The notes: generated by a model from the letters alone, not told the origin. A stretch of DNA of 19,677 bases from Nitrospirota bacterium (GCA_963741205.1 CAVUHW010000041.1:1-19677); one strand, 5' to 3'. Counted from the first letter of the stretch, positions 1 through 15,501 are shown. Translations and numbers: made by a program.

Positions 1-179
1 CGGGGTATTGATAGCTATGAGGTTATGTTTTCAACTCAAAAACGCTGACAGCTAATCTCGGAGGTGCCATGCCGGATTCCATCATATTAAGTAGTACAAC
101 TGGAAATTGATAGGATTTGTTGCCAACCAAATTCACACCTTGGTGCTGCTGATACTGGACGAGAAAAAGAGTTTGATCT

Positions 180-410
180 ATTCTGATCGAAATATTTAGC
201 GGTAACATCATCCTGAAGGTGTGAAATTCCAAATCCTCTCAAAATGTTCACTTCATGTCGAATTTGTTAATCTGCCAATGACAAGTCTCCCGCGTACCAG
301 CATCGATGTTTTGCACAGACTGCAGTTCGGTATATTTAGTATTGCACGTCTCTCTGGATGACACTCAAGGAATGTCAAACCTAGTTTCTCAGGATATCGA
401 ATTCATAAAA
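180..410 (+). repeat. CATCCTG-box intergenic repeat copy 1 (core 180-272, with extended right arm)
   Basis: CATCCTG at 209; TTCATGTCGAATTTGTTAAT at 252 (offset 43); right arm (cagcatcgatgttt...tattgcacgtctctct...tcataaa) aligns with copies 3 and 6. Confidence 0.85.
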
Positions 411-602
411 CAAAAACGTACACAGTAATTGCCTTTATCGAAATATGGGTAAATATACCTATATGTACACGAGTAAACTTATCCTATAATATCCTTATGG
501 CCTTTACTACCAACGTTGCGTCAGAGATAATAAGCTGAGAACATCTCGCAGGACGTTATGCGTGTGAATCATATCATTAATTGGTCTAGAGGGAAGATGC
601 CC

Positions 603-996
603 ATGAACTCCTATAACATCATGCTGGCTGACGATCATGTCCCTGTGCGCCAGGGCTTGCGACGGATCATCGAGGCAGTTTCCGAACCTCAAGGTCGTGG
701 GTGAAGTCGGAGACGGTTTGAAACTCCTTGAACTCATGAACGTAATTTTTCCCGATATGACCTTGGTCGACATTTCGATGCCGAACCTGGGTGGCCTCGA
801 AACCGTCAAGGAGATCAAAACTCGGCATCCCAAAGTCAAGGTGCTGATGCTCACTATGTACCGTGACAAGGAATATCCTCAAGCGCTTTCCTCGGCGCGG
901 ACGGATATATTTGAAAGACGACGCCGATACCGAGTATTTGCCGCAATAACCATGATCAGGAGAGGGATAAGGTACGTATCTCCTTACTTCTACTAA
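603..996 (+). CDS. NarL/FixJ-type response regulator receiver domain, no HTH; frameshifted
   Basis: ATG603 gives MNSYNIMLADDHVPVRQGLRRII, then shifts frame to LKVVGEVGDG...PDMTLVDISMPNLGGLE...KVLMLTM, and ends RGIRYVSPYFY. Confidence 0.8.
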
Positions 997-1009
997 AGCC
1001 AGAAGTACT

Positions 1010-1077
1010 TTCTAAAGCAAGCGGCGGCCGACTATTTGGCCGACAAAATCGCAAGCCAACTTAGCCGCGCGTTACAG
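1010..1077 (+). other. degenerate integron attC-like site
   Basis: tctaaa-gcaagcggc...cttagccgcgc-gttacag just after the stop codon; R''/L''/L'/R' layout with a mutated AAC. Confidence 0.4.
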
Positions 1078-1158
1078 CCCATATTTCAATGCTATGACGA
1101 GCGAGCGAGGTGCGTTTTGTAAGTGTCGCTGATGCTGGCAGAAAAAGAAGTCTGGATT

Positions 1159-1295
1159 ATTCTGGTTGAAGTGTTCAACCAAAACGTCATCCTAAAGGTA
1201 GCAGCCGTTTAGATTGATCGAAATTATATGTTTCCTGACGAATTTGTTAATCCCACAACAATAAATCTCACGTTTACTGGCATCAACATTAGCAC
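1159..1295 (+). repeat. CATCCTG-box repeat copy 2
   Basis: CATCCTA at 1188; TTCCTGACGAATTTGTTAAT at 1232 (offset 44); cacaacaataaatctcacg is shared with copies 3 and 6. Confidence 0.85.
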
Positions 1296-1840
1296 CTGAC
1301 GCAGGCCGTCAAGTTTTGCTTGTAACATTTAAGATCCCTCGGCTCCTTTCGGGGGAGTTTCACTCCTTATCCACATCTCCAGCCGCTCGAGATCATTCCT
1401 ATTGTGATATATTAATATAATGGATCAAGTGCTTATCGTGTACAAGTTTTTAAGGCATTTTAATCATATGTCAGCATGCATACAGGTCAAGACCTTGAGA
1501 CGAAGATATTCTTGATCTCGTAAACCATAGGCTCGATGCTGAATGACCCTGATTTTGTTATTCAGGCCCAACTCCAGGGTCTACCTCGAACTGGAGGTCT
1601 TCTTCGGCCTGAAACCGGGGAAGAGATACAAATCGGACAGAGTCCATCTTTTTCGAATGGCTGATTTTTGCCATTTTATCAGCCAGCTTTAAAACGATAA
1701 TATTCGCTACCAGAGCATGTTTTGTTACGCACAAGCGCGATTTTTACGTACACGATAAGCACTTGACCCATATTAGTTTTATTATCCTGTTTTAATCGAT
1801 TCGGCGCCATCATTATTCAATACCGAGAGGAGGACGCACC

Positions 1841-2780
1841 ATGAAAATGAATCTTCAATCACTGTTGTTCCTTTGGGGATCGTGCTTCTTGGGGGCCTCG
1901 CGGCCTGTTCGAGCAGCGAAACGGTTAATCCTTCGGATGTCATACCGCTGCCCGACGGGTTCCAGCCGGAGGGCATCACCATTTCCGGCACAAAGCTCTA
2001 TACCGGGTCGCTCCGACCGGCAAGATCTACATGGTTGATCATCGCAACACGACAGGGAAAGTTCCTTGTGGATGCCGGAGCGGCGGGAAGAATCGCAAGA
2101 GGCATGAAGGTGGACAGCCGGGGCCGTCTTTTCGTTGCAGGCGCGCAGACAGGCAACGCCTACGTCTACGATTCGGAAACAGGAGATAACATCGCCCTGT
2201 ACACCCTTGCAACGGGAACCACGTATATCAACGACGTGATCATTACGGCCAGTGCAGCTGGTTTACCGACTCCACCAACCCGTTTCTTTACAAGATACCC
2301 ATAAACCCGGATGGCTCACTGGGGCGCCGGGGTCGGTTTCAAGCCTCGCGCTGTCCGGCGATATTCATTTCGGTCCGGGGTTTAATTCCAACGGCATCGC
2401 CGCCACCCCGGACGGAGCACTGCTCATCATCGTCCAGACCAATACGGGCAAGCTCTTTACCGTGAATCCCGGTCACCGGTGTTACAACGGAGATATTCTA
2501 GCACGGCGGATAAAGCGGACAACGTGCTGAACGGAGACGGGATCCTTCTTCAGGGACAGACGCTCTTCGTTGTCCAGAACCGGCTGAACGTCATCGCAAA
2601 GATCACGCTCTCGGCGGACTTTGCCACCGGGCGGTAAACGGGCGGGTATCGAGTCCTGGCTTCGACGTCCCGACTTCGGTTACGGCCTCGGACGGGAGCC
2701 TCTATGCCGTGAACGCACGTTTCGGCGTAGCCAATCCCGATACCGCGGCGTATTCGGTCATCCGGATCGACAAACCGTAG
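1841..2780 (+). CDS. SMP-30/gluconolactonase (SGL) family beta-propeller lipoprotein; several frameshifts
   Basis: RBS gagaggagg; lipobox LAAC; motifs LPDGFQPEGITI, GMKVDSRGRLFVAG, YINDV, FNSNGIAATPDG, GDGILL, C-terminal YAVNARFG...IRIDKP-stop, spread across frames. Confidence 0.75.
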
Positions 2781-2861
2781 CAATTGCGTGAAGTTTGTTT
2801 GCTGACTGTCGTTTTCGTTATGATCATCTCTAACAGGTGCCGGCCGTCTGAAAAGTAATCA

Positions 2862-3108
2862 TTTTTCAGAGAAACATTCGCCGCTTGATACATCCTGTAG
2901 TTCACGCCTGTCGCTTATCGCAAGTCTGCGTACTTCCCGTCGAATTTACTAATTCCACAACGATAAATCTCACGTTGACCGGCATTGATGTTTGCTGTGG
3001 ACCTGAATGCTGTGTTTATTATTGCACGTCTCTCTCAATTACTCTTGAGAGAAAAGTGATATCCAATTTTCCCGGATTTTGGTATCATAAACTCCTGGCC
3101 TGCACAAG
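2862..3108 (+). repeat. CATCCTG-box repeat copy 3 with ~150-bp extended right arm
   Basis: CATCCTG at 2891; TTCCCGTCGAATTT at 2934 (offset 43); right arm closely matches 6302-6476 through ttttggtatcataaact. Confidence 0.9.
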
Positions 3109-3195
3109 TTTTATAGCTGAATCTGTAAAAGAATAGATAGAAACAACGTCTCCTAAAATTCCCTAAAATTCCTTTATCGGAGGGGCTCCACTAAG

Positions 3196-3741
3196 ATGAG
3201 AATCATCGCAATCATTGTTATTGTAACAATTATTGCACTTTCCGGATGCGGTGGTGATAGCAACTCTAGCAACGTTGTTCAATCCGGTAATACCAATACA
3301 ACGCTAACGTTATGTTCGAACAACACAACAATTGCGGAAGCTATTGCAACAATCAACGAAGCCCGCAGCGTAAGTCGTACGTGCGGCACAACCAACTATC
3401 CGGCAACAACACCTCTGACGTGGAATTCAAAATTGGCAATGGCAGCAGATGGTCATTCAGCTGATATGGCAACGAATAATTTCTTGTCACATACAGGATC
3501 TAACGGCAGCACCCTTGCAGATCGATTAACCGCTGCTGGCTACCCGTATCGTTCTGCTGGAGAAAATATTGCCGGGGGCTACGGCACAATAGATGCTGTT
3601 ATTACCGGGTGGCTGAACAGTGCAGGACATTGTGCAAACATTATGAGTCCGGATTTCAAAGAATACGCTGTTTCATGCTCCGATAATGAAAATTCTCAAT
3701 ACAAAACATATTGGACTCAAACCTTCGGATCACAAAATTGA
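3196..3741 (+). CDS. CAP/SCP (YkwD-like) domain lipoprotein
   Basis: Lipobox LSGC; motifs INEARS..RTCG, PLTWNSKL, HSADMA, SHTGSNGS, GENIAGG, WLNSAGHCANIM, YWTQTFG. Confidence 0.93.
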   Translation: MRIIAIIVIVTIIALSGCGGDSNSSNVVQSGNTNTTLTLCSNNTTIAEAIATINEARSVSRTCGTTNYPATTPLTWNSKLAMAADGHSADMATNNFLSHTGSNGSTLADRLTAAGYPYRSAGENIAGGYGTIDAVITGWLNSAGHCANIMSPDFKEYAVSCSDNENSQYKTYWTQTFGSQN

Positions 3742-3825
3742 ACACCGTCTGACCTTTTGTTAAAAAGGGCGTACACTTTCCAAGCCGTATTCTGCATTGA
3801 TATTTAATCAATGCCAAATACACGC

Positions 3826-3867
3826 TTTACACCTAAAGTTTTATGGTGTATCTTCAATGTAGATGCA
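3826..3867 (+). promoter_or_regulatory. mazE promoter with overlapping palindromic operator
   Basis: TTTACA(3826)-17-TATCTT(3849); palindrome TGTATCTTCAATGTAGATGCA resembles the mazEF operator. Confidence 0.65.
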
Positions 3868-3883
3868 TGAAAGGCTGCTATTT

Positions 3884-4126
3884 GTGAGAACTCGTGTTCA
3901 AAAATGGGGGAATAGTCTGGCTTTGCGAGTTCCGAAATCTTTTGCAGCCGAAGTCGGACTGCAGAGCGATGCGTCTGTTGATGTTTCTCTGTCTGATGGG
4001 AAATTGATTGTAGTGCCCATTGGAAAACCGGGTATTACCTTGAAGAAACTGTTATCACAAATAACAGACAAGAACATTCATCGTGAAATAGGAAGCGGTC
4101 CAGCCTTCGGTAAAGAAATATGGTAA
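3884..4126 (+). CDS. mazE: AbrB/MazE/SpoVT family antitoxin
   Basis: GTG start; MRTRVQKWGNSLALRVPK...LKKLLSQIT..N.H.EI..GPAFGKEIW. Confidence 0.88.
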   Translation: MRTRVQKWGNSLALRVPKSFAAEVGLQSDASVDVSLSDGKLIVVPIGKPGITLKKLLSQITDKNIHREIGSGPAFGKEIW

Positions 4127-4161
4127 ACACAAAACCATGTGAGAAACCCCAGGGTATCTAG
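4120..4161 (+). pseudogene. stub of a mazF-type toxin (start only)
   Basis: ATG overlaps the antitoxin end (ATGGTAA); MVNTKP, then a stop after 13 codons. Confidence 0.45.
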
Positions 4162-4367
4162 AAACCTTAACACCATGCCTCAGGAATTCAGGGCAGTGGT
4201 GACATACCTGTGTACCCCTTTTTGTGCCCCCTGTTGACCATCAAGGATTATCGATGACACGTATTCGGAGCATCCTTGACTAAAGAGAGAGGGCTTTCAA
4301 TCATCATCTGTTCGTTAAGGCTTTGAATCGGTTGCCAAAGATTACGGAAGCGGAGATATGTATTCAT

Positions 4368-4494
4368 CTTCCCAAAAAGCGACTTTAGGTGACCTCAACC
4401 AAAAATGCAGCGTAGGCGCTGCTACTCGCCGTTAATTTTCGCCGTCAAAGGGACATAAGGTCTTCCCTTTGCAACGATTTATCTTTTCGGGAAG
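4368..4494. repeat. 127-bp palindromic, MITE-like element
   Basis: Terminal IR cttcccaaaaag / cttttcgggaag (11/12); internal hairpins gcagcg-tagg-cgctgc and aaaggga...tcccttt. Confidence 0.5.
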
Positions 4495-4516
4495 TCATGC
4501 CAGACCCGAACGATAA

Positions 4517-4602
4517 TTTTCAACTGAAACCTTCAGCGTGACGACATCCTGAACTAACATCAGCATCAGTTCTCAGAAACGAGAAATTCATGTGGTAGTT
4601 GT
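4517..4602 (+). repeat. CATCCTG-box repeat copy 4
   Basis: gaaaccttcagcgtgacga-CATCCTG(4545); TTCATGTGG at 4587 (offset 42). Confidence 0.75.
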
Positions 4603-4842
4603 TGCCGTTGCTTTTGATGAAAACATCCACGCGTCTTCCTGAACTGTTGTTATTACTATTCTTTGAAACTCAAATCAGCGATAAAAGGAAAATCGAGAAG
4701 GATCTATTCAATAAACGAAGCGGAACAGCGGTGATGTCTCATTTTTTAATCGCCACGATGTCGTCATCGCTGACGCCTTTTCTGTGGACAACGAATTCTA
4801 TGCTGAAGTTTCACGGGTATGCTTGTAAATGCCCGACTGCAT

Positions 4843-4997
4843 TATCACAGGAATGCCACCTGATACAGGGGCATGACCCACCCCCGATTAGCATGGACTC
4901 TTTAAAGACCCTTGCGTGGTCGAGTCGCCTGAAAAAGCTCTTGGACCTGGGATGGAAAGATATTCTTATTCGAGACCGACAGAATCACGCTGCTCAT
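4843..4997 (-). pseudogene. truncated N-terminus of a putative nucleotidyltransferase-fold protein (GSU2403-like)
   Basis: ATG overlaps the upstream stop (ATGA); reconstructed LF.RLDHARVFKESMLIG.WVMPLYQ, then stops. Confidence 0.35.
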
Positions 4998-5330
4998 CCC
5001 TTGCCGGGTTTCAGGATTTTCGATAAATATTCAATTTTTTTCTGATACGCCTGTGCTTCTCTTTCCAACTTTTTTCTTTGCTCCAGCTTTTTCAGTAGTG
5101 CCGGGGCTTCATGGTTGGGGATATGTTTATTGACGACCTTGTTCCCGTCGCGGTATTTCAATGAGTGGTAAGAATAGGCTTTGTCCTTGTAGCGCTTCTT
5201 TCGCTCACTCAATACGCCCTTAGGTAGCCCTTCCAGGGAATTCTGCAGGCCGGCAAGCATATCCTGGTACCGCTTGAATTCGTCACGGAGCATGCTGCTG
5301 ATGATCTTGGTCTTTTTCCACCACTTTCAT
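4994..5330 (-). CDS. hypothetical basic coiled-coil protein; one frameshift near the start
   Basis: MKVVEKDQ.. joins MLRDEFKRY...LPKGVLSERKK..Y.Y.SLKYRDGNKVVNKHI...YLSKIL. Confidence 0.65.
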
Positions 5331-5410
5331 GCTTATATTATGCCTTTTGTGGTGGAAAAGCGCAAGGGGCTTACTCCGGGCGACTAGCTTATTTGATAAA
5401 ATCGTCCTGA

Positions 5411-5443
5411 AATACCCAGCAGCTCTGCTGCGGGGAATTTTAC
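5411..5443. repeat. IS200/IS605-type terminal hairpin remnant
   Basis: aatacccagcagctctgctgcggggaattttac: GC-rich stem cagcag/ctgctg, resembling IS200/IS605 end palindromes. Confidence 0.5.
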
Positions 5444-5470
5444 TACGAATAGCAAACACCCTTGCAACGA

Positions 5471-5560
5471 ATACTGTTCGTAACTTTCGTCGAGCCCTGT
5501 ATCCTCCTAGTTCTCGGCAGATGTAAATCGCGGATTTGCTCACTTCATCTCATATGCTTC
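5471..5560 (+). repeat. CATCCTG-box repeat copy 5
   Basis: gtaactttcgtcgagccctg-TATCCT(5500); aaatcgcggatttgctcac-TTCAT at 5544 (offset 44). Confidence 0.75.
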
Positions 5561-5803
5561 AATTGCGGGATGTAGACGGCATGTACACTTCTTATCAAAT
5601 ATCGTTTGACATGAAAACTTCATAAGCCTAAAATCATTTCGATCATAGCTAGGTATTTTAAGTTCCCCCGTGTTACTTATCAAGCCGGTAGCTTAGGGTG
5701 TTGAAAAATTCCATTGAAAGTTGCATAATAATAGTAATCTCCTAACTCATCGTATCGAGGGGAAGTCGAATTCCATTTATTCCCCCCCCGGAGGCGACAA
5801 CCC

Positions 5804-6030
5804 ATGTCGGTAAAAGCAGTTGAAATGGTGCGAAAGATCCGGGACCAGATTATGAAGAAACGAAGAATCTGTCGGTTGCGGATCAGCTCAAGTACGTGAG
5901 GAAGAAATCCGATAAGCTCGAAAGAGAGCTTGCGAAGTGGAACAAGCGCAAATCTAAGCCCACGGCACCGGCAGCGCGTGTAAGGGGGAAGAAAACTGCT
6001 TCCAAACTCTTGATTGAGGATCGCAACTGA
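5804..6030 (+). CDS. small basic hypothetical protein, possibly antitoxin-like; one frameshift
   Basis: RBS ggagg; MSVKAVEMVRKIRDQ / YEETKNLSVADQLKYVRKKS...TASKLLIEDRN-stop; absent from the ORF track because of the indel. Confidence 0.55.
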
Positions 6031-6229
6031 TCATCTACCCGACCCTACGATCTATCTTCGGTAGATTAAGTTCGTGAAGAAAGCCGAGAAGCTTCATGAA
6101 AAGGTCAAGTCGCGGCGGTCAGTCTCGAGCACCCGCGTTTGCTCGTTCCAGTCTAAGCCTCCCCCGATTTGATACTCCGAAATCACACCTTGTGCTGTCA
6201 ACGCCCGTGATGGCGCCGAAGAACAACTC

Positions 6230-6476
6230 ATTCCATTTGAAACATTCGTCGAGTGCTGCATCCTGTAGGTCGCAAAATCATCCAACGGCAAAATTGCGCA
6301 GTTCCTGTCGAATTTGTTAATCACACAACGATAAATCTCACACTTCCAGCATTGATGTTTGCTGAGAACCTGAATGCTGATGTTTATTATTAAACATCTC
6401 TCTCAATTACTCTCAAGGGAAAAATGTTACCCAATTTCCTCTGATTTTGGTATCATAAACTGCTAGCGTGCACACG
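6230..6476 (+). repeat. CATCCTG-box repeat copy 6 with extended right arm
   Basis: CATCCTG at 6259; TTCCTGTCGAATTTGTTAAT at 6302 (offset 43); right arm matches copy 3. Confidence 0.9.
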
Positions 6477-6524
6477 GATGTCCTTGAGCATCTTAATAAG
6501 GTTACAAGATTAGCAGGACAGTAA

Positions 6525-7100
6525 ATGAATAAACCGGCTATACAATACTATAAAGCCACACCAATTAATTTTGAGGGCATTTTCCGTCTACAGAACAAGA
6601 ACCTAATTACTGCCCTGCAAGGTGGGGATTTATCTCAAGGGTTTCTTACTATACCGATATCAAAGGACCAACTTCATAGAATATGCAGTGAGCATGGTAT
6701 ATTCGTTGCTCTTCAGGGATCAGAAGTTATCGGATACGTGATGGCACAGTCTGTAGAACTTGCAATAGTGTCTCCGTTGATAGCCCACATGTTTGGCAGG
6801 CTGAAGAACGTCGTATTTGAAGGTTCCCAATTATCATCTTGTACATTATTTAATTATGGACCTGTCTGTATTGAGAAGCAATATAGAGGAAAAGGAATTT
6901 TGGATAACCTATTCAATTTGATGCTTCAAACATTGCAAGGACAGTTTGAGGTGGGTATTGGTTTTGTATCAGAACAAAATCCACGTTCTTATTATGCGCA
7001 TAAAAAGAAACTGGGATTGCAATTGATAGATGAATTTGATTTCAGTGGGCAGAAGTATTTTACCTTTGCCTTTGCTGTAACACGGAAAGAGCGGAAGTGA
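6525..7100 (+). CDS. GNAT family N-acetyltransferase
   Basis: Motif A YGPVCIEKQYRGKGIL; VSEQNPRSYYAHKKKLG. Confidence 0.85.
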   Translation: MNKPAIQYYKATPINFEGIFRLQNKNLITALQGGDLSQGFLTIPISKDQLHRICSEHGIFVALQGSEVIGYVMAQSVELAIVSPLIAHMFGRLKNVVFEGSQLSSCTLFNYGPVCIEKQYRGKGILDNLFNLMLQTLQGQFEVGIGFVSEQNPRSYYAHKKKLGLQLIDEFDFSGQKYFTFAFAVTRKERK

Positions 7101-7105
7101 CGTTG

Positions 7106-7172
7106 TCCTAACGACAAAACCCTAGCCGGTTGTTCGATGATCTCGACCGCAGCCTGCACTTCTCGGTTTGGA
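7106..7172 (+). other. degenerate attC-like site after the GNAT gene
   Basis: R'' tcctaac 5 bp after the stop; R' gtttgga (vs gttagga); internal cggt/accg pairing. Confidence 0.45.
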
Positions 7173-7192
7173 TCTGCCCCAGAAAAGATGCC

Positions 7193-7280
7193 ATTTCCGA
7201 TCGTAACGTCGAGCGTGAGGTCATCCTGAAGCCCAAGGCTGCTGTAATATGTAAGACGTGTAGAATTCAAATGGGATTCC
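7193..7280 (+). repeat. CATCCTG-box repeat copy 7
   Basis: gtaacgtcgagcgtgaggt-CATCCTGAAG(7222); TTCAAATGG at 7266 (offset 44). Confidence 0.7.
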
Positions 7281-7357
7281 ACAAATTCCAAAGAGTGAAA
7301 CCCTCGTGACGATCATTTTGAACTTTGCACACGGGTTAATAGTGCCGGGAGTGTAAC

Positions 7358-7449
7358 TTTCATGTCGTATCATTCAGCGCGCAGATCATCCTGTAATTCA
7401 CGCCAAACACAAATCTGGGATCTGCGCACTTCATGCTGAATTTGTTAAC
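7358..7449 (+). repeat. CATCCTG-box repeat copy 8
   Basis: gtatcattcagcgcgcagat-CATCCTG(7387); TTCATGCTGAATTTGTTAAC at 7430 (offset 43). Confidence 0.88.
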
Positions 7450-7493
7450 GCATGGCCCAGAGAGATCCTTCCCCCGTCATTATTTCCCCGTCA

Positions 7494-7522
7494 TTGACAT
7501 CGTCCTGAATCAGGCATATATT
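7494..7522 (+). promoter_or_regulatory. sigma70 promoter candidate
   Basis: TTGACA-17-TATATT. Confidence 0.55.
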
Positions 7523-7580
7523 CATGCAGTAGGAGGCTCATTCGTAGTTATTTTTGAGAGTGAATAAGATAAGTAGCGAA

Positions 7581-7639
7581 TAATAACGTGCTGCTCCGAA
7601 GCGTCGCTCCGAAAGGCGGCGCGTGACCGGCGTTTATGA
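7581..7639 (+). other. degenerate attC-like site
   Basis: taataac...gcgtcgct-ccgaa-aggcggcgc...gtttatga. Confidence 0.35.
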
Positions 7640-7734
7640 TTGGAAAATTATCAAAATGAACTCTGAAATCGAAAAAAAACAATAACGGATGTCGCCAGCG
7701 AGATGAACACATCCATCATACGCTATAGGAGGAA

Positions 7735-8355
7735 TTGCTCATGAGTTACATACAGATGATCAGAATGAGGCGACTGTTCTTGTCACTTATGGGAAAGCTG
7801 CTTCTAATTGGACTACTGATAGGATTGTGCAGTTGCCAGAGCATGCGGCGGATTACTAATCCTCCACCGGCACTTCCGGAGCCAAAATATGTTGCATCCG
7901 TTAATGATGACGTGAAATTTACGGTCATCCCTTTCAATTATTATATGAACCAGATAGAATTCGCAGCAGACGTAGAAAGCGTTCTACTCAAAGCGGGTCT
8001 GAATCTCGTTGCGGCCCCTCGAGTCACAAAAATGGTGGAAGAAAGGAAAGGCGCTGGAGTAGCACATGACAGTGATGCTTCAAGCGTATCAAATGCGCGA
8101 GTTCAGAGCGAGGAGATTCAAGCGACAAGCGTGGAAAAATATATTACCAACGGGGAAATCAATACGGATTACATAGTAGAAACAATGTTGATCCGTTATA
8201 AAGGTACTGTTAAGTTCACGAGAAAAAAAGACGCTAAAATTATGGGGGTCTTCACAGTTTCGGCTGACGACTCAGATCACCTTAGAAAGGAAATTTTTGA
8301 TGCACTTGAGGACATGCATTTTATAGTTCGTACCCAAAATGACGATAATCCGTGA
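7735..8355 (+). CDS. hypothetical lipoprotein (start uncertain)
   Basis: 206-aa ORF; RBS aggagg; hydrophobic signal ending LCSC. Confidence 0.7.
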   Translation: MLMSYIQMIRMRRLFLSLMGKLLLIGLLIGLCSCQSMRRITNPPPALPEPKYVASVNDDVKFTVIPFNYYMNQIEFAADVESVLLKAGLNLVAAPRVTKMVEERKGAGVAHDSDASSVSNARVQSEEIQATSVEKYITNGEINTDYIVETMLIRYKGTVKFTRKKDAKIMGVFTVSADDSDHLRKEIFDALEDMHFIVRTQNDDNP

Positions 8356-8436
8356 TATGTAATAGAAGCTGTGTCAAACAAGAGCGAAGAAGCTTGTAGG
8401 CTGCAGCAAGGACACTTTTCTTTAGGGACCATTTTT

Positions 8437-9687
8437 TCACATCATCTCCACGGACAGCGGTACGACTGCTACACCCTGGAGTCCCAGACCGGTAAAACCC
8501 CTGACGTATAAGTTCACCGGGATGAACTCATCCAACGTGGGGAAGATCCCGTTGGGGATAACGTTGAACTGGATGCTCGTGAATTCGCCCAGACCGAACC
8601 CATTCATATTGCGCATCACGATATGCAGTAGGGCCGGTACCCCGAAGAACGCGGGTGTGTATTTGGCTGCTATGATATTGTTGTTACCAAAGTCGGCTAC
8701 GCCCGATATGGTAACGACCCCGTCCGCGGTGATTCCTGTGGTCCGATCATGATCGAGCGTGACACCCAGTGGCAGGGCGAGCGTCACATCTAAGGCCGAC
8801 AGGGCGAAGGGAATACCAACCGTTGCCAACTTGAGCACGCCGGTTGCGAATGCGGGAGGCGCGGTGGCTGTCGTTCCGGTCGCGGCTGTCGTTCCGGCCG
8901 CGGTTGTCGTTCCGGTCGTGGTTGTATTGTTGGTGAAGCTTGCAATAGCCCCGCTGATCATGTTGGTCGAATCCGTCGACAGGTCGCCGCCGTGTTCCTC
9001 CTCATCGTCGAACTTGCCGAGAATCCGTTCCAAGGCGTCGTCCAGCGGTTCATTTTCCAACTTGTTTAAGTTAATGAGCAGCGAAAAGGCTCCGCAGGCT
9101 GCAGCGTACTTCTTCTGGTCGTCCGTCTCCCCTCCTGCAACAGGCAGGACCGAGACGATGTTCCTGAGACTAAAGGAGACAGCGACGCTGGCATTTGAAT
9201 TGTCAATCGATTCCGAGGTGAGAGGTCCGCTGCCTTTCGCTTTTTTATAGGCCAGTTCGGTCAGCGGCGTCACGGACACCGTCGTTGTTGCGTTGAGCTT
9301 AACGCCGGTAACGACCGCATGCAGCGGGATCTTGAGAGCGACCGTTGCCCCGCTTGCTTCGTCCGTAAATATTCCGCCTGTAACCTCAACGAATACTGGC
9401 CCTTCATAGGAGCCGAGGCTTACAGAATAGCTCCCTCCGTCAACGGTCTCTCCTGTCCCTATCGGAGCGGACGTGTCTATAAGGCCATCCTTTATCCCGT
9501 ACACTTTTACCGCCGCTCCGCTGATCGGCCCCTTTGACACCATCCCGCTCAGAACGCTTGCCTGCGCAGGTGGGGGAGCCGTCGATGTCGTTGCTTCTCC
9601 TCCAGACTTTCCGTTGCTGCCACAGCCCGTCAACAAAAGTACCACGAAATAGAGAATGGCAATTGGCTTGACGTATCGTATTTTCAT
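8437..9687 (-). CDS. secreted lipoprotein with an N-terminal Ig/carboxypeptidase-regulatory-like domain and a Thr/Ala linker
   Basis: MKIRYVK...LLLTGC lipobox; SGMVSKGPISGAAVKVY, GGIFTDEASG, VSVTPLTELA; the ORF is open from 9777. Confidence 0.75.
   Translation of the reverse strand: MKIRYVKPIAILYFVVLLLTGCGSNGKSGGEATTSTAPPPAQASVLSGMVSKGPISGAAVKVYGIKDGLIDTSAPIGTGETVDGGSYSVSLGSYEGPVFVEVTGGIFTDEASGATVALKIPLHAVVTGVKLNATTTVSVTPLTELAYKKAKGSGPLTSESIDNSNASVAVSFSLRNIVSVLPVAGGETDDQKKYAAACGAFSLLINLNKLENEPLDDALERILGKFDDEEEHGGDLSTDSTNMISGAIASFTNNTTTTGTTTAAGTTAATGTTATAPPAFATGVLKLATVGIPFALSALDVTLALPLGVTLDHDRTTGITADGVVTISGVADFGNNNIIAAKYTPAFFGVPALLHIVMRNMNGFGLGEFTSIQFNVIPNGIFPTLDEFIPVNLYVRGFTGLGLQGVAVVPLSVEMM
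8863..8925. repeat. 18-bp in-frame tandem repeat, 3.5 units
   Basis: (c/g)g(c/t)gg(c/t)tgtcgttccgg(t/c), encoding the TTTGTTTAAGTTAATGTTAT linker. Confidence 0.85.
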
Positions 9688-10236
9688 GGAACTGTACATT
9701 TCACTTCGGTCATGTAGAAAAGAGGAAGGTGCAGGTGACGCCTGCACCGGTAGCAGGAATGGGATGTTCTTCTTCATGGGATGCCTCCCTGCACTACTTG
9801 TAGGGAAAACTTGATTCTAATAAAATGATAGCACGGGCCGCAGATAACGCACTGTTTTAGAATATGGTATAATATTTGTCCTGTTTTAATGTTCGCTTGT
9901 GGCAGCAGCTGAATCAGGAGAACTTTTGCTGTTCTCATGCGAAGGGAGAAGTCTGCTTGGTAGATTTAGTCGGGAAGGCGATGACGTCCTTCAGAGGGGT
10001 TGGATCCCGCCGGAATGGTGGGTCGGATTGGACCGGAATACACATCATAGGTGCTATCGTTTTCGGTATCATTAACTAAAGAAGTTTAAACACAGACCCG
10101 CTGTAGACTGCACTTGGAGGTCATCTTCTGATTTTATTGTTGGCATGTTCCGACCAGGAATTCGTAGTTTTTCAAACGAGCGCAGACGCGAGGTAGTAGG
10201 TGTTGCCGATATATATGATCAATCGTAAAAATAACA

Positions 10237-10326
10237 AATCCGTTTGTAAACTTCAGTGCGGCGATAATCCTGTGGTTCACGCTAAACATAAATCGCGGAT
10301 CCGCGCACTTCATGTCAAAATTGTTG
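10237..10326 (+). repeat. CATCCTG-box repeat copy 9
   Basis: gtaaacttcagtgcggcgat-AATCCTG(10266); TTCATGTCAAAATTGTT at 10309 (offset 43); very similar to copy 8. Confidence 0.88.
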
Positions 10327-10604
10327 TTTTCTGAAGTTGCCTTCCTTAAAATCAAGGGAATGTTTAGCTCGCTCGTTGCCTCAACCTTTCCTTGCTCGAC
10401 GAATGTTCAGAAAACGAACAAGAGCACGGAGAATGGCACATATCAAGGATCTGCTGTCAACGCTAAAGTGAAAACTCACGGAATACGGCTTATAATAAGC
10501 GATCGGCCCAAAATGAGTTGCTCAGAATAACCCCACCCGCCCAAAAAAATCCGCACATACCTGCAAACATATTGTTTTCACTCAATCATTATCATCTTAA
10601 TTTG

Positions 10605-10621
10605 TTGGCATATCATTTGCT
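10605..10621 (+). promoter_or_regulatory. sigma54 (-24/-12) promoter
   Basis: TTGGCATATCATTTGCT with exact GG-N10-GC spacing. Confidence 0.6.
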
Positions 10622-10728
10622 TAAAAAAGCTCATAATGACTACAAAAAAAATTGTAGATGCACTCTTAATCGATGCAATGACATCCTGAAAGTCGCTCAG
10701 ACAAAGTGTCACACGAGGCGGTTGAGTA

Positions 10729-11043
10729 ATGTCTAAAGATACTATTTTAGACGTACAGTGTCCGGCGTGCCATTCGACGGCCGTCAATCGTTATGGATAT
10801 ACACGAAAAAGCATACAGCGCTATGTCTGCTTAATCTGTGGGAGGCAGTTTACTAATGGTTACCGTAAGATAGTCGAGCAAAGACCGTTATGCGTTTCCT
10901 GCGGCGGCATTATGTATCTCTACAAAGAGGAGAAGACGAGCGTACGTTACAGGTGCTCGAGATATCCTGACTGCAGAACATTCGTGAAAGTTTCAAAAAA
11001 GGGAACCAGTATCGAGGCATCATCAGCTCCAGCTCCAGCATAA
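10729..11043 (+). CDS. double zinc-ribbon protein with an IS1 InsA-like N-terminus
   Basis: CPACHS..VNRYG.....QRYVCLICGRQF plus CVSCGG...YRCSRYPDC; no InsB/DDE domain follows. Confidence 0.7.
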   Translation: MSKDTILDVQCPACHSTAVNRYGYTRKSIQRYVCLICGRQFTNGYRKIVEQRPLCVSCGGIMYLYKEEKTSVRYRCSRYPDCRTFVKVSKKGTSIEASSAPAPA

Positions 11044-11156
11044 CTTCGGTCACATTATCTCCAAGTAATACTCAATATTCCGTTTGAACAAAAATTGAAG
11101 AAGCCTAATATCTTGCCATACCTTTTCTTGGAACAGAATCAAAATGTCAAAATCCC

Positions 11157-11185
11157 TTGACTAAAATTCTCTACTCTGACATACT
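11157..11185 (+). promoter_or_regulatory. sigma70 promoter of hup
   Basis: TTGACT-17-CATACT, with TG one base upstream of the -10 box. Confidence 0.55.
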
Positions 11186-11238
11186 TTCGTTCGCCCCTCT
11201 ATTAAAGCACATTCAACCCAATCCAAAAGGAGGATCAA

Positions 11239-11526
11239 ATGGCAAAAGCGATGACCAAGGCGCAATTGGTAACACGTGTTTCTGAGAAAGCCGGAATCAC
11301 GAAGAAGGCAGCGAGTGACATACTTATTCACATTGCTGAAATAGCCTACAAGGAAGCAAAGAACTCATTTACACTTCCTGGCATTGGGAAGCTCGTGCTC
11401 GTTCAGCGCAAGGCCCGCATGGGCAGGAACCCCCAGACCGGCGAGGCCATCAATATTCCCGCTAAGAAGGTTGTCAAGTTCCGAGTTGCCAAGGCCGCAA
11501 AGGATGCGATCTTGGGGAAGAAATAA
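11239..11526 (+). CDS. hup: DNA-binding protein HU
   Basis: RBS aggagg; MTKAQLV...LPGIGKL...RKARMGRNPQTGEAINIPAKKVVKFR. Confidence 0.95.
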   Translation: MAKAMTKAQLVTRVSEKAGITKKAASDILIHIAEIAYKEAKNSFTLPGIGKLVLVQRKARMGRNPQTGEAINIPAKKVVKFRVAKAAKDAILGKK

Positions 11527-11554
11527 CAGCTATCACCTGAGAGCAATCATCGGT

Positions 11555-11591
11555 AAAAGGGCCTTCTGACCTCTGGTTGGAAGGCTCTTTT
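11555..11591 (+). terminator. rho-independent terminator (bidirectional form)
   Basis: aaaagggccttctgacc-tct-ggttggaaggctctttt. Confidence 0.75.
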
Positions 11592-11609
11592 GGGTTTGAG
11601 AGAACCATA

Positions 11610-11722
11610 TTTGCGATCGTAATATTCAGCGCGTTTAGCTTCCTGAACTCATTGAAGTAGCATATCATTAAAACATATCAAGTTACATTCTGTATCTGTT
11701 GGGATGCCCCAAAAATACCCAA
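11610..11722 (+). repeat. CATCCTG-box repeat copy 10
   Basis: gtaatattcagcgcgtttag-CTTCCTGAAC(11639); right arm ttaca...atgccccaaaaatacccaa is shared with copy 11. Confidence 0.7.
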
Positions 11723-12040
11723 TCAACGTGATTGACAGGAAATAACATCGACATTGCCTGGCTATACTCGCAAAAACAGATAACGATCCTTTCAACAACC
11801 TGCGAAGAAGCATCCGGAGGTTTCAGGACTGATCGAGGCGTTCAATAATTAAATTAATCCCACCTTTGCTTGTGTTTCTTAAATTTTTATGATATACATA
11901 AAAAGTAACGTTATCTCTACTCTCCATTACAAAAGCGCATAATCGTATTATTCTTTGATATCAAAATACTAACAACACCAAAAATCCGAGCAGTATAGCC
12001 CCGATTCTGTGTGGATTTCGGCAGAGAAAGGAGATTATAC

Positions 12041-13536: not shown

Positions 13537-13718
13537 TGTATGATACAACCAGAATACTGCATGCCCGTTGATAGATCGTCTACTCGCTCTGTAGTGAATG
13601 TCGCAATCTTCATGTCGGCAAATGACATGTACCAGCCGAAATTGTTAACAGTATCGCCTTTTCGATTTCACAAGTAGTAGGTGACGCTGATAAATATTAT
13701 GATGCTGAAGGTTAATAA

Positions 13719-13753
13719 ATTCCAGTCGAAACTTTCATCGCGCCCTCCATCCT
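13719..13753 (+). repeat. CATCCTG-box repeat copy 11, left half (interrupted by the IS)
   Basis: attccagtcgaaactttcatcgcgccctc-CATCCT, then non-repeat sequence. Confidence 0.85.
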
Positions 13754-14009
13754 TTTATGTTAAAAGTCAAGCCTGGCTCAGACTAAACAGGCTGGCCGAT
13801 AGGTTTTTCCCTGTTTGCTGTTTGTTTTCGTTAATGGTCATTGAAAGAGTATCAGTCGGAGGATTCCTCCCCTGCATTGATCGTTTGTGAGAAATTTCTT
13901 TGTTGGAGCAAATATCGGTTCTCACAAATGCCCCAGGATCGATTTTCCCGGGACAGTCCATATCCTGATACCCCCCTGTAGGATCCTTTCTCGGGATTTG
14001 TTCGCAGAA

Positions 14010-14216
14010 CGGACAAATCTTTAAAACCACGCTTTTATTAGCAGACATGCCTACATCATTAAAGGCAGCTGCATTTCCTTGATCATGTATTAAAGTTGTG
14101 GGTCCGCAGTCTGAAGTAGTGCAGACACGCTTCATTAGCCGGCTGCAGGATGGAACAAAGCGGTACCCACGATGAATAAGGTTCTAAAATCGGCCGCTCT
14201 AACGTGATCCCGTTTC
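14010..14216 (-). ncRNA. predicted bridge/seek RNA with target-binding and donor-binding loops (ends approximate)
   Basis: Two homologous stem-internal-loop-stem units (GCAGC..UAAUGA..UGUCUGC); guides UCCAUCCU and ACUUCAG match the target; AUAAAAG matches the donor. Confidence 0.8.
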
Positions 14217-15287
14217 TTATTGTATAACCGCAGGCACATACTCCTTCTGATTCTTCAGGACGTATCTGATTCGATTCAATAGTTTTCTGGCGATATGAAC
14301 GATGGCCCTTGTTCTTGGCATGTTCTTAGAGAGGCGTTCAAAGGCCATTAGCAACGCCGGGTCTTTCCGTGTAGCAATCCACGAGCTTTCAATAATCAAA
14401 TGCCGAAGTGATTGGTTGCGCCGGTTGGTAATGCCTGTTGTGATGTCCTTTTCTCCGCTGGAGTCCGTATTAGGAATGAGACCGACATAGCTCGCAAGTT
14501 TGTCGAGTGATCCAAACCGATCAATATTACACAGTTCCGTGAGAAACGTCATGGCGGTGAGTGTGCTGATCCCCGATACGGTTCTTAACAATTTCACATT
14601 AACTTTATATTCAGCTGACCGAGAGAGGACGCGAATGTTCCGGTTCAATTCGACAACGATTCCCCGGATATGGTGTAGCTCTTGGAGATGCACCATAAAG
14701 GAGACATTGCCACTGGCTTTTTCCATGCGAATCGCTTCAAGCCATTTAATGAACTTGCTTGACCAGTTACGAGTAACAATGTCAGTGGGTAGATGAATGC
14801 CATAAAAAGCGAGCATGGACTTGATCTGGTTCTTGCACCGGGTCTGCTTCTTGACCATGTTTCGTCGAGTTCTGATTAAGCTGCGATCTTCGACCTTTAT
14901 CCGCGTGGGAACATAGATTCCTGCGAGCTCTCCGTTCCTATGGCATCGGGCAAGTTTGCGGCAATCTACCTTATCGTTTTTGCCTGCCCGTTCCTTGTCT
15001 GTTGTCGGAATGTCAGCAGGATTTACCACTATGCAGTCGATGCCTTTTTCTCTTAACTGGTCGTGGATCCAGAATCCGGAATAGCCGGCTTCATAAACGG
15101 CATGATAGGTTGCACCAGGGAAGTTCCGATTCAAGTAGTTGGCAAGAACCGATGGATCTGGTGGTTGCGTGAAGGTCTTATGTTCAAACTGCTGAGTCAA
15201 GATGCATACACTCCAACTTTTCTTATGAACGTCCAAACCGACATAAATATGTTGACCGCTGAAATCGAGTTTGCTAATGTTAATCAT
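14217..15287 (-). CDS. IS110 family transposase/recombinase (DEDD RuvC plus Tnp20 domain)
   Basis: VGLDVHKK, VYEAG, KNDKVD catalytic DEDD residues; GLIPNTDSSG serine motif; RBS aaggag. Confidence 0.95.
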   Translation of the reverse strand: MINISKLDFSGQHIYVGLDVHKKSWSVCILTQQFEHKTFTQPPDPSVLANYLNRNFPGATYHAVYEAGYSGFWIHDQLREKGIDCIVVNPADIPTTDKERAGKNDKVDCRKLARCHRNGELAGIYVPTRIKVEDRSLIRTRRNMVKKQTRCKNQIKSMLAFYGIHLPTDIVTRNWSSKFIKWLEAIRMEKASGNVSFMVHLQELHHIRGIVVELNRNIRVLSRSAEYKVNVKLLRTVSGISTLTAMTFLTELCNIDRFGSLDKLASYVGLIPNTDSSGEKDITTGITNRRNQSLRHLIIESSWIATRKDPALLMAFERLSKNMPRTRAIVHIARKLLNRIRYVLKNQKEYVPAVIQ

Positions 15288-15367
15288 GGCAAGTCTCCTT
15301 TCGGTGTATTTTGGTCTTCCTAACGAAAATATACCTTAAGTCAGACTTGCCATTTTAATCATAAGGT

Positions 15368-15447
15368 CTGAAGTTCACGAATTCCCATTCTTGCAAACAA
15401 TCAACGTTACGTTTCGAATTTATTACCGTATGCCCCCAAAATACCCA
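15368..15447 (+). repeat. CATCCTG-box repeat copy 11, right half
   Basis: CTgaagttcacg...ttacgtttcgaatttt...atgcccccaaaatacccaa. Confidence 0.8.
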
Positions 15448-15450
15448 ACC

Positions 15451-15501
15451 GAAGTCGTGTTACAACAACTTCTTGACAATGACATGAGTATGGATTAAGT
15501 T
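15451..15501 (+). promoter_or_regulatory. promoter with an adjacent 22-bp palindromic operator candidate
   Basis: gaagtcgtgttacaacaacttc abuts TTGACA(15473)-17-TAAGTT. Confidence 0.5.

Follow-up and report, generated by a model that had tools for sequence, protein, structure and literature searches.

An IS1111-type insertion sequence at the CT core of a cassette-array repeat in a Nitrospirota genome, with a predicted RNA guide to the repeat centre

The 19,677-bp contig C41 of GCA_963741205.1, a genome assembly assigned to the Nitrospirota, carries from position 1 to about 15,434 an array of cassette-like units with a repeat of about 100 nt between them, and one copy of that repeat, copy 11, is divided by an insertion sequence (IS) of 1616 bp at 13754–15369 on the minus strand. 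The window analysed here is this whole contig, one of 50 in an assembly of about 4.27 Mb (G000). The locus raises the question of what the element recognises at this point, and what kind of object the repeat is. Taken together, the junctions, further copies and relatives lead us to regard 13754–15369 as very probably an active-looking, IS1111-type member of the IS110 family that is RNA-guided into the centre of the repeat.

The preliminary description of this stretch had proposed an IS110/IS1111 element inserted exactly at CATCCT/G of the repeat (a slash marks the junction here and below), with CT as its core, and had stated that removal of 13754–15369 leaves a normal repeat copy; all of this was borne out. 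The left junction, at 13753/13754, reads ...ctccatcCT/TTTATGTTAAAA, and the right junction, at 15369/15370, reads ...ATAAGGTCT/gaagttcacg. CT is present at both junctions (13752–13753 and 15368–15369) and once only in the restored site. The CT at 13752–13753 is the crossover dinucleotide, and the second one forms the last two bases of the element, which makes the boundaries movable by 2 nt. Insertion therefore left no long target duplication and took place at a short core common to the target and the element ends. The left half of copy 11 (13706–13753, plus strand), which ends in CATCCT (13748–13753), and the right half (15370–15434, plus strand; GAAGTTCACG ... TTCGAATTTATTACC) each gave a half match in an nhmmer search, to model positions 72–119 and 8–73, respectively, and these matches (13753–13706 and 15434–15368) adjoin the element at model positions 72/73. 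Deletion of 13754–15369 yielded a single match to model positions 9–119, with 67.0 bits and an E value of 3e-18, and the restored copy keeps the offset of about 43 nt from CATCCTG to the second conserved block. The repeat model was built from 10 sequences including copy 11, and the 67.0-bit score is therefore partly circular; an independent case is the copy of the element on contig C5, where the same deletion gave 72.3 bits.

The transposase gene (14217–15287, minus strand) encodes 356 amino acids with a DEDD/RuvC-like N-terminal domain and a Transposase_20 domain, and lies antisense to the cassette genes. Both Pfam domains scored above their cut-offs (PF01548 DEDD_Tnp_IS110, 57.6 bits against 29; PF02371 Transposase_20, 61.8 bits against 21.3), which, with the IS1111-type layout, supports the family assignment. 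The gene is preceded by 82 nt and followed by 463 nt of non-coding DNA, the latter at 13754–14216 (minus strand). A 122-residue open reading frame (ORF) at 13767–14135 was dismissed as spurious, its frame being broken or shifted in the copies on C5 and C9 and in the relatives, and without a Pfam match. Subterminal inverted repeats are present at both ends: TTATGATTAAAA (in element orientation) at 15353–15364 on the minus strand, 5 nt from the transposase-proximal end, and TTATGTTAAAA at 13755–13765 on the plus strand, 1 nt from the distal end. Aligned as TTATGATTAAAA against TTATG-TTAAAA, they show 11 matches and one indel, and in the relatives they are about 20 nt long. This leaves terminal extensions of 5 and 1 nt, which become 3 and 3 nt when the ambiguous CT is counted with the opposite end. 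Subterminal inverted repeats, usually of 11–13 bp, and a long non-coding region downstream of the gene are marks of IS1111-type elements (PMC11187229, cited here, like PMC13626964 and PMC3001079 below, from excerpts), and the present element shares both features with that group.

The downstream non-coding region contains the sequence TCCATCCTG, which corresponds to the plus strand of the repeat through CT, and, 37 nt further on, ACTTCAG, which corresponds to the opposite strand through CT. Both lie in a candidate long seekRNA, or bridge RNA (14006–14200, minus strand), which is closed by a long stem in the predicted fold and falls in a region conserved in 13 copies. Within it, a predicted target-binding loop (14098–14170, minus strand) consists of an outer stem GUGGGUACCGC/GCGGACCCAC, an inner hairpin UGCAG...CUGCA and an internal loop with both guides; it folds at -28.6 kcal/mol (z -2.89), and only 1 of 200 shuffled sequences folded as well. 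Guide 1, on the 5' side of the loop (14146–14154, minus strand; UCCAUCCUG), is an exact 9-mer of the repeat plus strand from the left flank through CT to G. Guide 2, on the 3' side (14111–14117, minus strand; ACUUCAG), is an exact 7-mer, the reverse complement of CTGAAGT, that is, of CT and the right flank. In the predicted fold the two guides face each other over the internal loop between the two stems, and they overlap at CT. When the non-coding region was shuffled, both guide matches were recovered in 5 of 5000 shuffles, and both within 60 nt in 0 of 5000. The arrangement is that of the published seekRNA and bridge-RNA design, in which two segments match opposite strands of the target, overlap in it and have the top-strand match 5' (PMC11187229); here, too, the top-strand match is on the 5' side, in the same strand order.

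These data suggest the following model. The non-coding region would encode a seekRNA (bridge RNA), one internal loop of which holds the guides UCCAUCCUG and ACUUCAG; the guides would pair with opposite strands of TCCATCCT/GAAGT, overlapping at the CT of strand exchange. This word is the nearly invariant centre of the repeat, which would bring the element to the same CT each time, antisense to the cassette genes. By analogy with IS621, precise excision as a circle is presumed, with a predicted circle junction …CATAAA-AG-ACCTTATG…. We infer that the RNA is produced and bound by the transposase, and likewise infer how the IS ends, as the donor, would be recognised. A possible, weak donor guide is AUAAAAG (14032–14038, minus strand), a 7-mer that reproduces the final bases of the IS end followed by the core and is invariant in every copy. 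The distal part of the non-coding region contains a conserved hairpin (13920–13975, minus strand; GGGGGGUAUCAGGAUAUGG...AUCCUGGGG) that carries both strands of the core as CAGGAT and ATCCTG. It was considered as a guide and rejected, being unchanged when the targets of the relatives change. A piece of this hairpin survives as a scrap at C14:39531–39587, next to a left half of the repeat.

Two further full copies of the element were found in the genome, on C9 (96.9% identity) and C5 (93.5% identity). All three full copies have intact ends and intact 356-amino acid ORFs with 98–100% amino acid identity. Fragments are present on C36 (89–333; 245 bp of the transposase-proximal end, LE), on C4 (the other end, RE) and on C14 (the 57-nt scrap). 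The flanks of the other copies, which the preliminary description had proposed as its check, bear out its expectation: all five loci that bear a junction (C41, C5, C9, C36 and C4) have the same CT, the same relative orientation and an adjoining repeat half, at model position 72/73 or at CATCCT. The arrangement of CT at both junctions and once in the restored site is likewise found at C5, at C9 and in 10 relatives. The fragment on C4 (12678–12897 and 14161–14249) is divided by about 1.26 kb of foreign DNA and is still joined to a repeat half; both degraded fragments, on C4 and C36, remain joined to repeat halves at the same CT. In Logan contigs from soil metagenome runs the IS is joined to other flanks which, by eye, resemble other repeat halves. 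No joint that skips the IS, as expected of an uninterrupted copy 11, was seen in contigs of public runs, the non-IS flanks being uncovered in the runs examined.

Transposase relatives are encoded at 20 loci in public genomes, and those at 72–90% amino acid identity are in metagenome-assembled genomes (MAGs) labelled Nitrospirota, where the element itself is 83–89% identical at the nucleotide level. Both ends are preserved in 10 relatives; they are conserved, and each is flanked by an AG core in element orientation. When the sites of these 10 were restored, the right half of the repeat was found at seven (L010, L011, L012, L014, L016, L023 and L027), as ...TCCT/G[A/T]AG, about 40 nt and then ACTTCAT/ATCAAC...TTGTTAGC, where only the first slash marks the junction. 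Among 13 copies, the stems of the predicted loop are kept and the guide segments vary. The guides fit their own flanks at 14.8 of 22 positions and the flanks of other copies at 13.4, a value reached in 25 of 20000 permutations. Guide and target changed together most clearly at L010 (TGCTTCAG with flank TGCTTC/AG), L024 (CTATAG with CAAT/AG) and L027 (CAGGATGAAG with AGGATGAAG).

The repeat itself was examined throughout the window and the genome. Ten further copies, all in the orientation of copy 11 on the plus strand, lie within 171–11708 and separate cassette-like plus-strand genes, as seen by nhmmer and alignments: copies 1–5 at 171–284, 1153–1264 (a weak match), 2849–2966, 4506–4610 and 5464–5574, and copies 6–10 at 6217–6334, 7181–7293, 7348–7460, 10225–10335 and 11599–11708. 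A profile search (E<1e-3) counted 66 copies on 19 contigs; 11 of these contigs have two or more copies, and on each of the 11 the copies are co-oriented. The motif of the second conserved block occurs 13 times in this genome, one to three times each in nine of the 14 congeneric genomes, in one of four genomes of other genera of the family, and in none of the 12 genomes searched from other families. On a 100-kb stretch of a related MAG, the model from this genome gave three weak matches, two of them IS flanks; a model from the relatives' sites gave six on the same stretch, including four that flank its two IS copies. Three exact-pattern matches in unrelated phyla, from a scan of genome contigs, were taken as chance.

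The repeat is a mosaic: a left module, at most about 100 nt long, is followed by the invariant CATCCTG, then by a middle module of some 45 nt and the conserved block ACTTCATGTCGAATTTGTTAA. This is visible, for example, at 6217–6334, at 7348–7460 and in copy 11 (13706–13753 with 15370–15434). Among 1485 pairs of copies, a shared left 40 nt never occurred with a shared right 40 nt (0 of 28), nor the reverse (0 of 40). In 80 in-register alignments the break points gather at CATCCTG and, a second time, between +45 and +64, near a GTT; conserved blocks lengthen local alignments, and the exchange points are placed only to within those blocks. In 7 of 10 alignments of shared cassette bodies, the boundary was the core. 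These results indicated that the halves of the repeat reassort at the same centre into which the IS is inserted. A minus-strand coding frame ("LQD") in the repeat was considered and rejected, since it stops after 0–78 codons, most within 60, with inconsistent lengths.

Other mobile elements also use the repeat. A second IS110-family element, of 1406 bp, lies at C45:1165–2570 (L044:1165–2570); its 396-amino acid transposase matches the two Pfam domains with 129 and 83 bits and shares 21% identity with that of the first element. It has its long non-coding region (203 nt) upstream of the gene, is sense to the cassettes and interrupts another repeat copy at the same CT, as ...CCATCCT/...GTTGACT/GTACTTCACG.... 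Both strands of its own target recur in its upstream region, as CATCCTG and AGTACAG, and a further copy at C10:87947–89197 (about L045:947–2198) has the guide ACTTCCTGG and the flank AACTTCCT. That two distant IS110-family lineages, one with its RNA downstream and one upstream of the gene, act on one dinucleotide marks the repeat centre as a special place. The contention of the preliminary description that the IS is independent evidence of an abundant, conserved repeat was upheld; it supports the repeat as a real, abundant and functional entity. In a related MAG (G001, contig C1), a multicopy IS91-family element of 2.45 kb (L038:3954–6400 and L039:28–2473) has matches to Y2_Tnp (190 bits) and Zn_Tnp_IS91 and an adjacent tyrosine recombinase gene (Phage_integrase, 124 bits); in both copies examined it sits 30–31 nt downstream of a repeat core. 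These insertions lie inside the repeat, and a third type of IS therefore uses it. Related MAGs contain many copies of a tyrosine recombinase that scores 96–110 bits on the integron-integrase model; these Xer-like proteins were considered as the cassette recombinase and rejected, as they belong to the IS91-family element.

Several observations weigh against a repeat-directed, RNA-guided element. The site on C9 is degenerate on its left, and the model matches its right half alone (20.9 bits). The terminal extensions, 5 and 1 or 3 and 3 nt, depart from the 7 bp (occasionally 6) on the left and 3 bp on the right given for IS1111 members in the excerpted text (PMC11187229). A scan of the whole window against Rfam, with E up to 1, found no matching family; the sequencing runs listed include no RNA-type run; and no partner was found for the single, invariant 7-nt donor candidate. 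Because all targets resemble one another, merging identical guide sets leaves a modest covariation signal: among the 10 copies that remain, one for each distinct guide pair, the observed fit was reached in 588 of 20000 permutations. Three of the 10 relatives (L013, L021 and L024) sit in similar short words in unrelated, non-repeat DNA. Finally, the 14-nt word that the guides spell out has 50 sites in the genome when CT is kept constant and up to two mismatches are allowed. Of these, 14 are in repeats, an enrichment given that repeats amount to 8.2 kb of 4.26 Mb, and 36 are elsewhere; those 36 are all empty, the occupied sites being all in repeats; either something beyond the word matters, or selection removes such insertions. 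On a rival reading, the IS has no relation to the repeat as such and merely reads a short word that is common there, while insertions elsewhere are lost by selection. Such a reading, which we consider improbable, draws on the three relatives outside any repeat, on guides that span just 13–14 nt and on CATCCTGAAG, found 18 times within recognised repeats and 50 times outside them. It is opposed by the presence of 5 of 5 junction-bearing loci in repeat copies against 14 of 50 sites within two mismatches, by the identity of the guide sequence with the repeat consensus, and by the convergence of the second, unrelated IS110-family element on the same CT. Mechanistically it overlaps with guidance into the repeat centre, and the sole difference is whether the fit to the repeat is adaptive. 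Because the occupied sites are all in repeats, yet relatives land elsewhere in 3 of 10 cases, the RNA reads a word, and that word is tuned to the repeat centre. The specialisation on the repeat put forward in the preliminary description thus holds for the flanks and the fit of the guides, and is to be corrected in that the element reads an RNA-specified word of about 13–14 nt and not the whole repeat. A chimeric assembly, or a dead relic that no longer moves, is a very remote explanation of the interval. The window is a short contig of a fragmented, 50-contig assembly, and degraded fragments of the same IS occur on C4, C14 and C36; on the other side stand three full copies of 93.5–100% identity with intact ends and ORFs, long-read MAG contigs as long as 1.3 Mb in which the same element again has its ends intact, and contigs from independent runs that span both IS ends into other flanks.

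A different account would make the repeat an integron attC and the element a plain member of the IS1111-attC group (ISPst6, ISPa21, ISKpn4). An attC has a nearly invariant AAC (R'') and GTT (R'), with the consensus RYYYAAC and GTTRRRY; it is an imperfect palindrome that forms a hairpin, in which R''/L'' pair with L'/R', and it travels whole with its upstream cassette, crossing over at G/TT. The arrays resemble integron cassettes in being co-oriented, with diverse small plus-strand genes including one for a MazE antitoxin, and the repeat consensus holds both triplets, spaced by about 95 nt and adjoined by short inverted words; the second exchange point is close to the GTT. The genome also encodes an integron integrase (367.5 bits on TIGR02249, cut-off 265), the only one found. 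The IS, moreover, is antisense to the cassettes and close to the site's 5' end, a placement described for ISPa21 and ISPst6 (PMC3001079). However, the integrase belongs to a canonical integron on C18 (131988–136000; L009:9989–14000), where it is followed by about 3 kb of low-GC DNA with three cassettes whose classical GC-rich attC sites are unlike the repeat, and C18 holds no repeat copy. A hairpin signal was not found: the duplex of left and middle modules is no more stable within a copy than across copies (-7.30 against -7.28 kcal/mol, p 0.71), the complementarity being confined to short outer words (TAAC-ATTC and GAAT-TT-GTTA). Fold z values averaged -0.62, and 7 of the 50 copies scored lower than -2; five copies folded singly gave z values of -3.39, +1.65, -0.96, +0.25 and +0.76, one of the five folding better than all its shuffles. 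RNAalifold on a MAFFT alignment of 55 copies yielded no consensus structure for the plus or the minus strand. The two halves reassort at the centre of the site, whereas an attC moves whole, and AAC (0.8, 0.8 and 0.5) and GTT (its G and first T below 60% in the consensus) are less conserved than the central CATCCTG (0.9–0.99). Three related MAGs that carry the IS have no integrase above the cut-off, and no plasmid-borne homologue exceeds 36% identity to the transposase; the best of these homologues (22–36%) bear generic names only. One of these, on a Klebsiella plasmid, was considered as an IS1111-attC example and rejected: it sits between iutA and a gene for a ParB-domain protein, outside any integron. 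Because of the missing hairpin signal, the independently assorting parts and an integrase that stands beside different attC sites, we conclude that the repeat is not a canonical attC; the attC account is unlikely. Dyad symmetry, expected at the core site of a tyrosine recombinase, is weak around this core: with a 7-bp spacer, 3.96 of 12 positions match, and cross pairs give 3.86. The coincidence of CT with the point where the halves reassort keeps open, at low probability, a further reading in which the repeat is the joint of cassette-like units whose ends reassort at CATCCTG through cutting by the IS110-family recombinases, which would in this way shuffle the arrays. Recombination of the left junction of one IS copy with the right junction of another could release the IS and the intervening cassettes as a circle, or targets could recombine directly with each other.

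With RNA guidance into the repeat centre as the favoured reading, the element can be set beside known systems. Homing of IS110-family elements to abundant repeats by means of an RNA guide is already established (PMC13626964, PMC11187229). IS621 targets the repetitive extragenic palindromic (REP) sequence, with a CT core (PMC13626964); ISPa11 also targets REP, and ISKpn4 and ISPst6 target attC (PMC11187229). Elements that target attC insert close to the site's 5' end, antisense to the cassette genes (PMC3001079). The analogy with the IS1111-attC group drawn in the preliminary description holds for behaviour and does not extend to membership. Like ISPst6, ISPa21, ISKpn4 and ISPa25, the present element has an IS1111-type layout, is specific for site and orientation in a repeat between cassettes, near its 5' end and antisense to the genes (PMC3001079), and has a seekRNA candidate downstream of the gene with two opposite-strand matches to the target (PMC11187229). 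It differs in a target that fails the tests for an attC, in a transposase distant from the plasmid-borne relatives and in a host lineage that, to judge by named relatives, is probably Nitrospirota. With the REP-targeting IS621, ISPa11 and ISPpu9 it shares an abundant intergenic repeat as target and, as far as those sources describe it, target choice by a bridge RNA or seekRNA, and with IS621 also strand exchange at a CT core (PMC13626964). In IS621 the RNA is upstream of the gene, whereas here it is downstream, and the REP target is palindromic, whereas here it is a junction of two independently assorting cassette ends. IS1111-type elements that home to the conserved end of another mobile unit (PMC11187229) are alike in their subterminal inverted repeats, and have another target and host; this likeness is one of description only. 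The element is thus a distant member of a known RNA-guided, repeat-homing kind, and what is new is its lineage-specific target.

The G+C content of the window is 0.479, against about 0.565 in the large contigs. The genes of the array are diverse and on the plus strand, with products including a response-regulator receiver, a CAP domain protein, the MazE antitoxin, HU, MscL and OmpA, and the cassette ORFs with a Pfam match are on the plus strand without exception. The sole long minus-strand cassette ORF, of 446 amino acids (8437–9777), has a sub-threshold match to an RTX N-terminal domain (18.5 bits, cut-off 26.8). Past about 16 kb the G+C content rises to about 0.54 and ordinary genes follow, including those for ZnuA and an ABC-3 permease. 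Conserved DNA directly 3' of three repeat copies (284–365, 2966–3106 and 6334–6474; 84–91% identity between two) suggests a common 5' region of cassettes, which may be a promoter or a leader. In two copies (11704–11729 and 15430–15455) the repeat is followed by a motif, ATGCCCC(C)AAAATACCCAA, and a similar one follows it at the L023 flank in the MAG of a relative; at 15460–15500 the motif stands before a promoter-like stretch containing TTGACA.

The locus stands out for a clean series in which guide and target covary, for the meeting of two lineages on one dinucleotide and for the coincidence of that dinucleotide with the reassortment point of the repeat halves. It provides a well-resolved natural example, from outside the Proteobacteria, of an IS1111-type element in which target choice is very probably guided by RNA, and relatives in which guide and target change together are useful raw material for the mining of bridge recombinases. 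The repeat, which orders more than 60 co-oriented cassette-like units and is not a canonical attC, is a more unusual object than the IS. If the shuffling of cassettes by the resident IS recombinases were true, these would be the engine of the arrays and not just parasites, a bridge-recombinase analogue of the integron.

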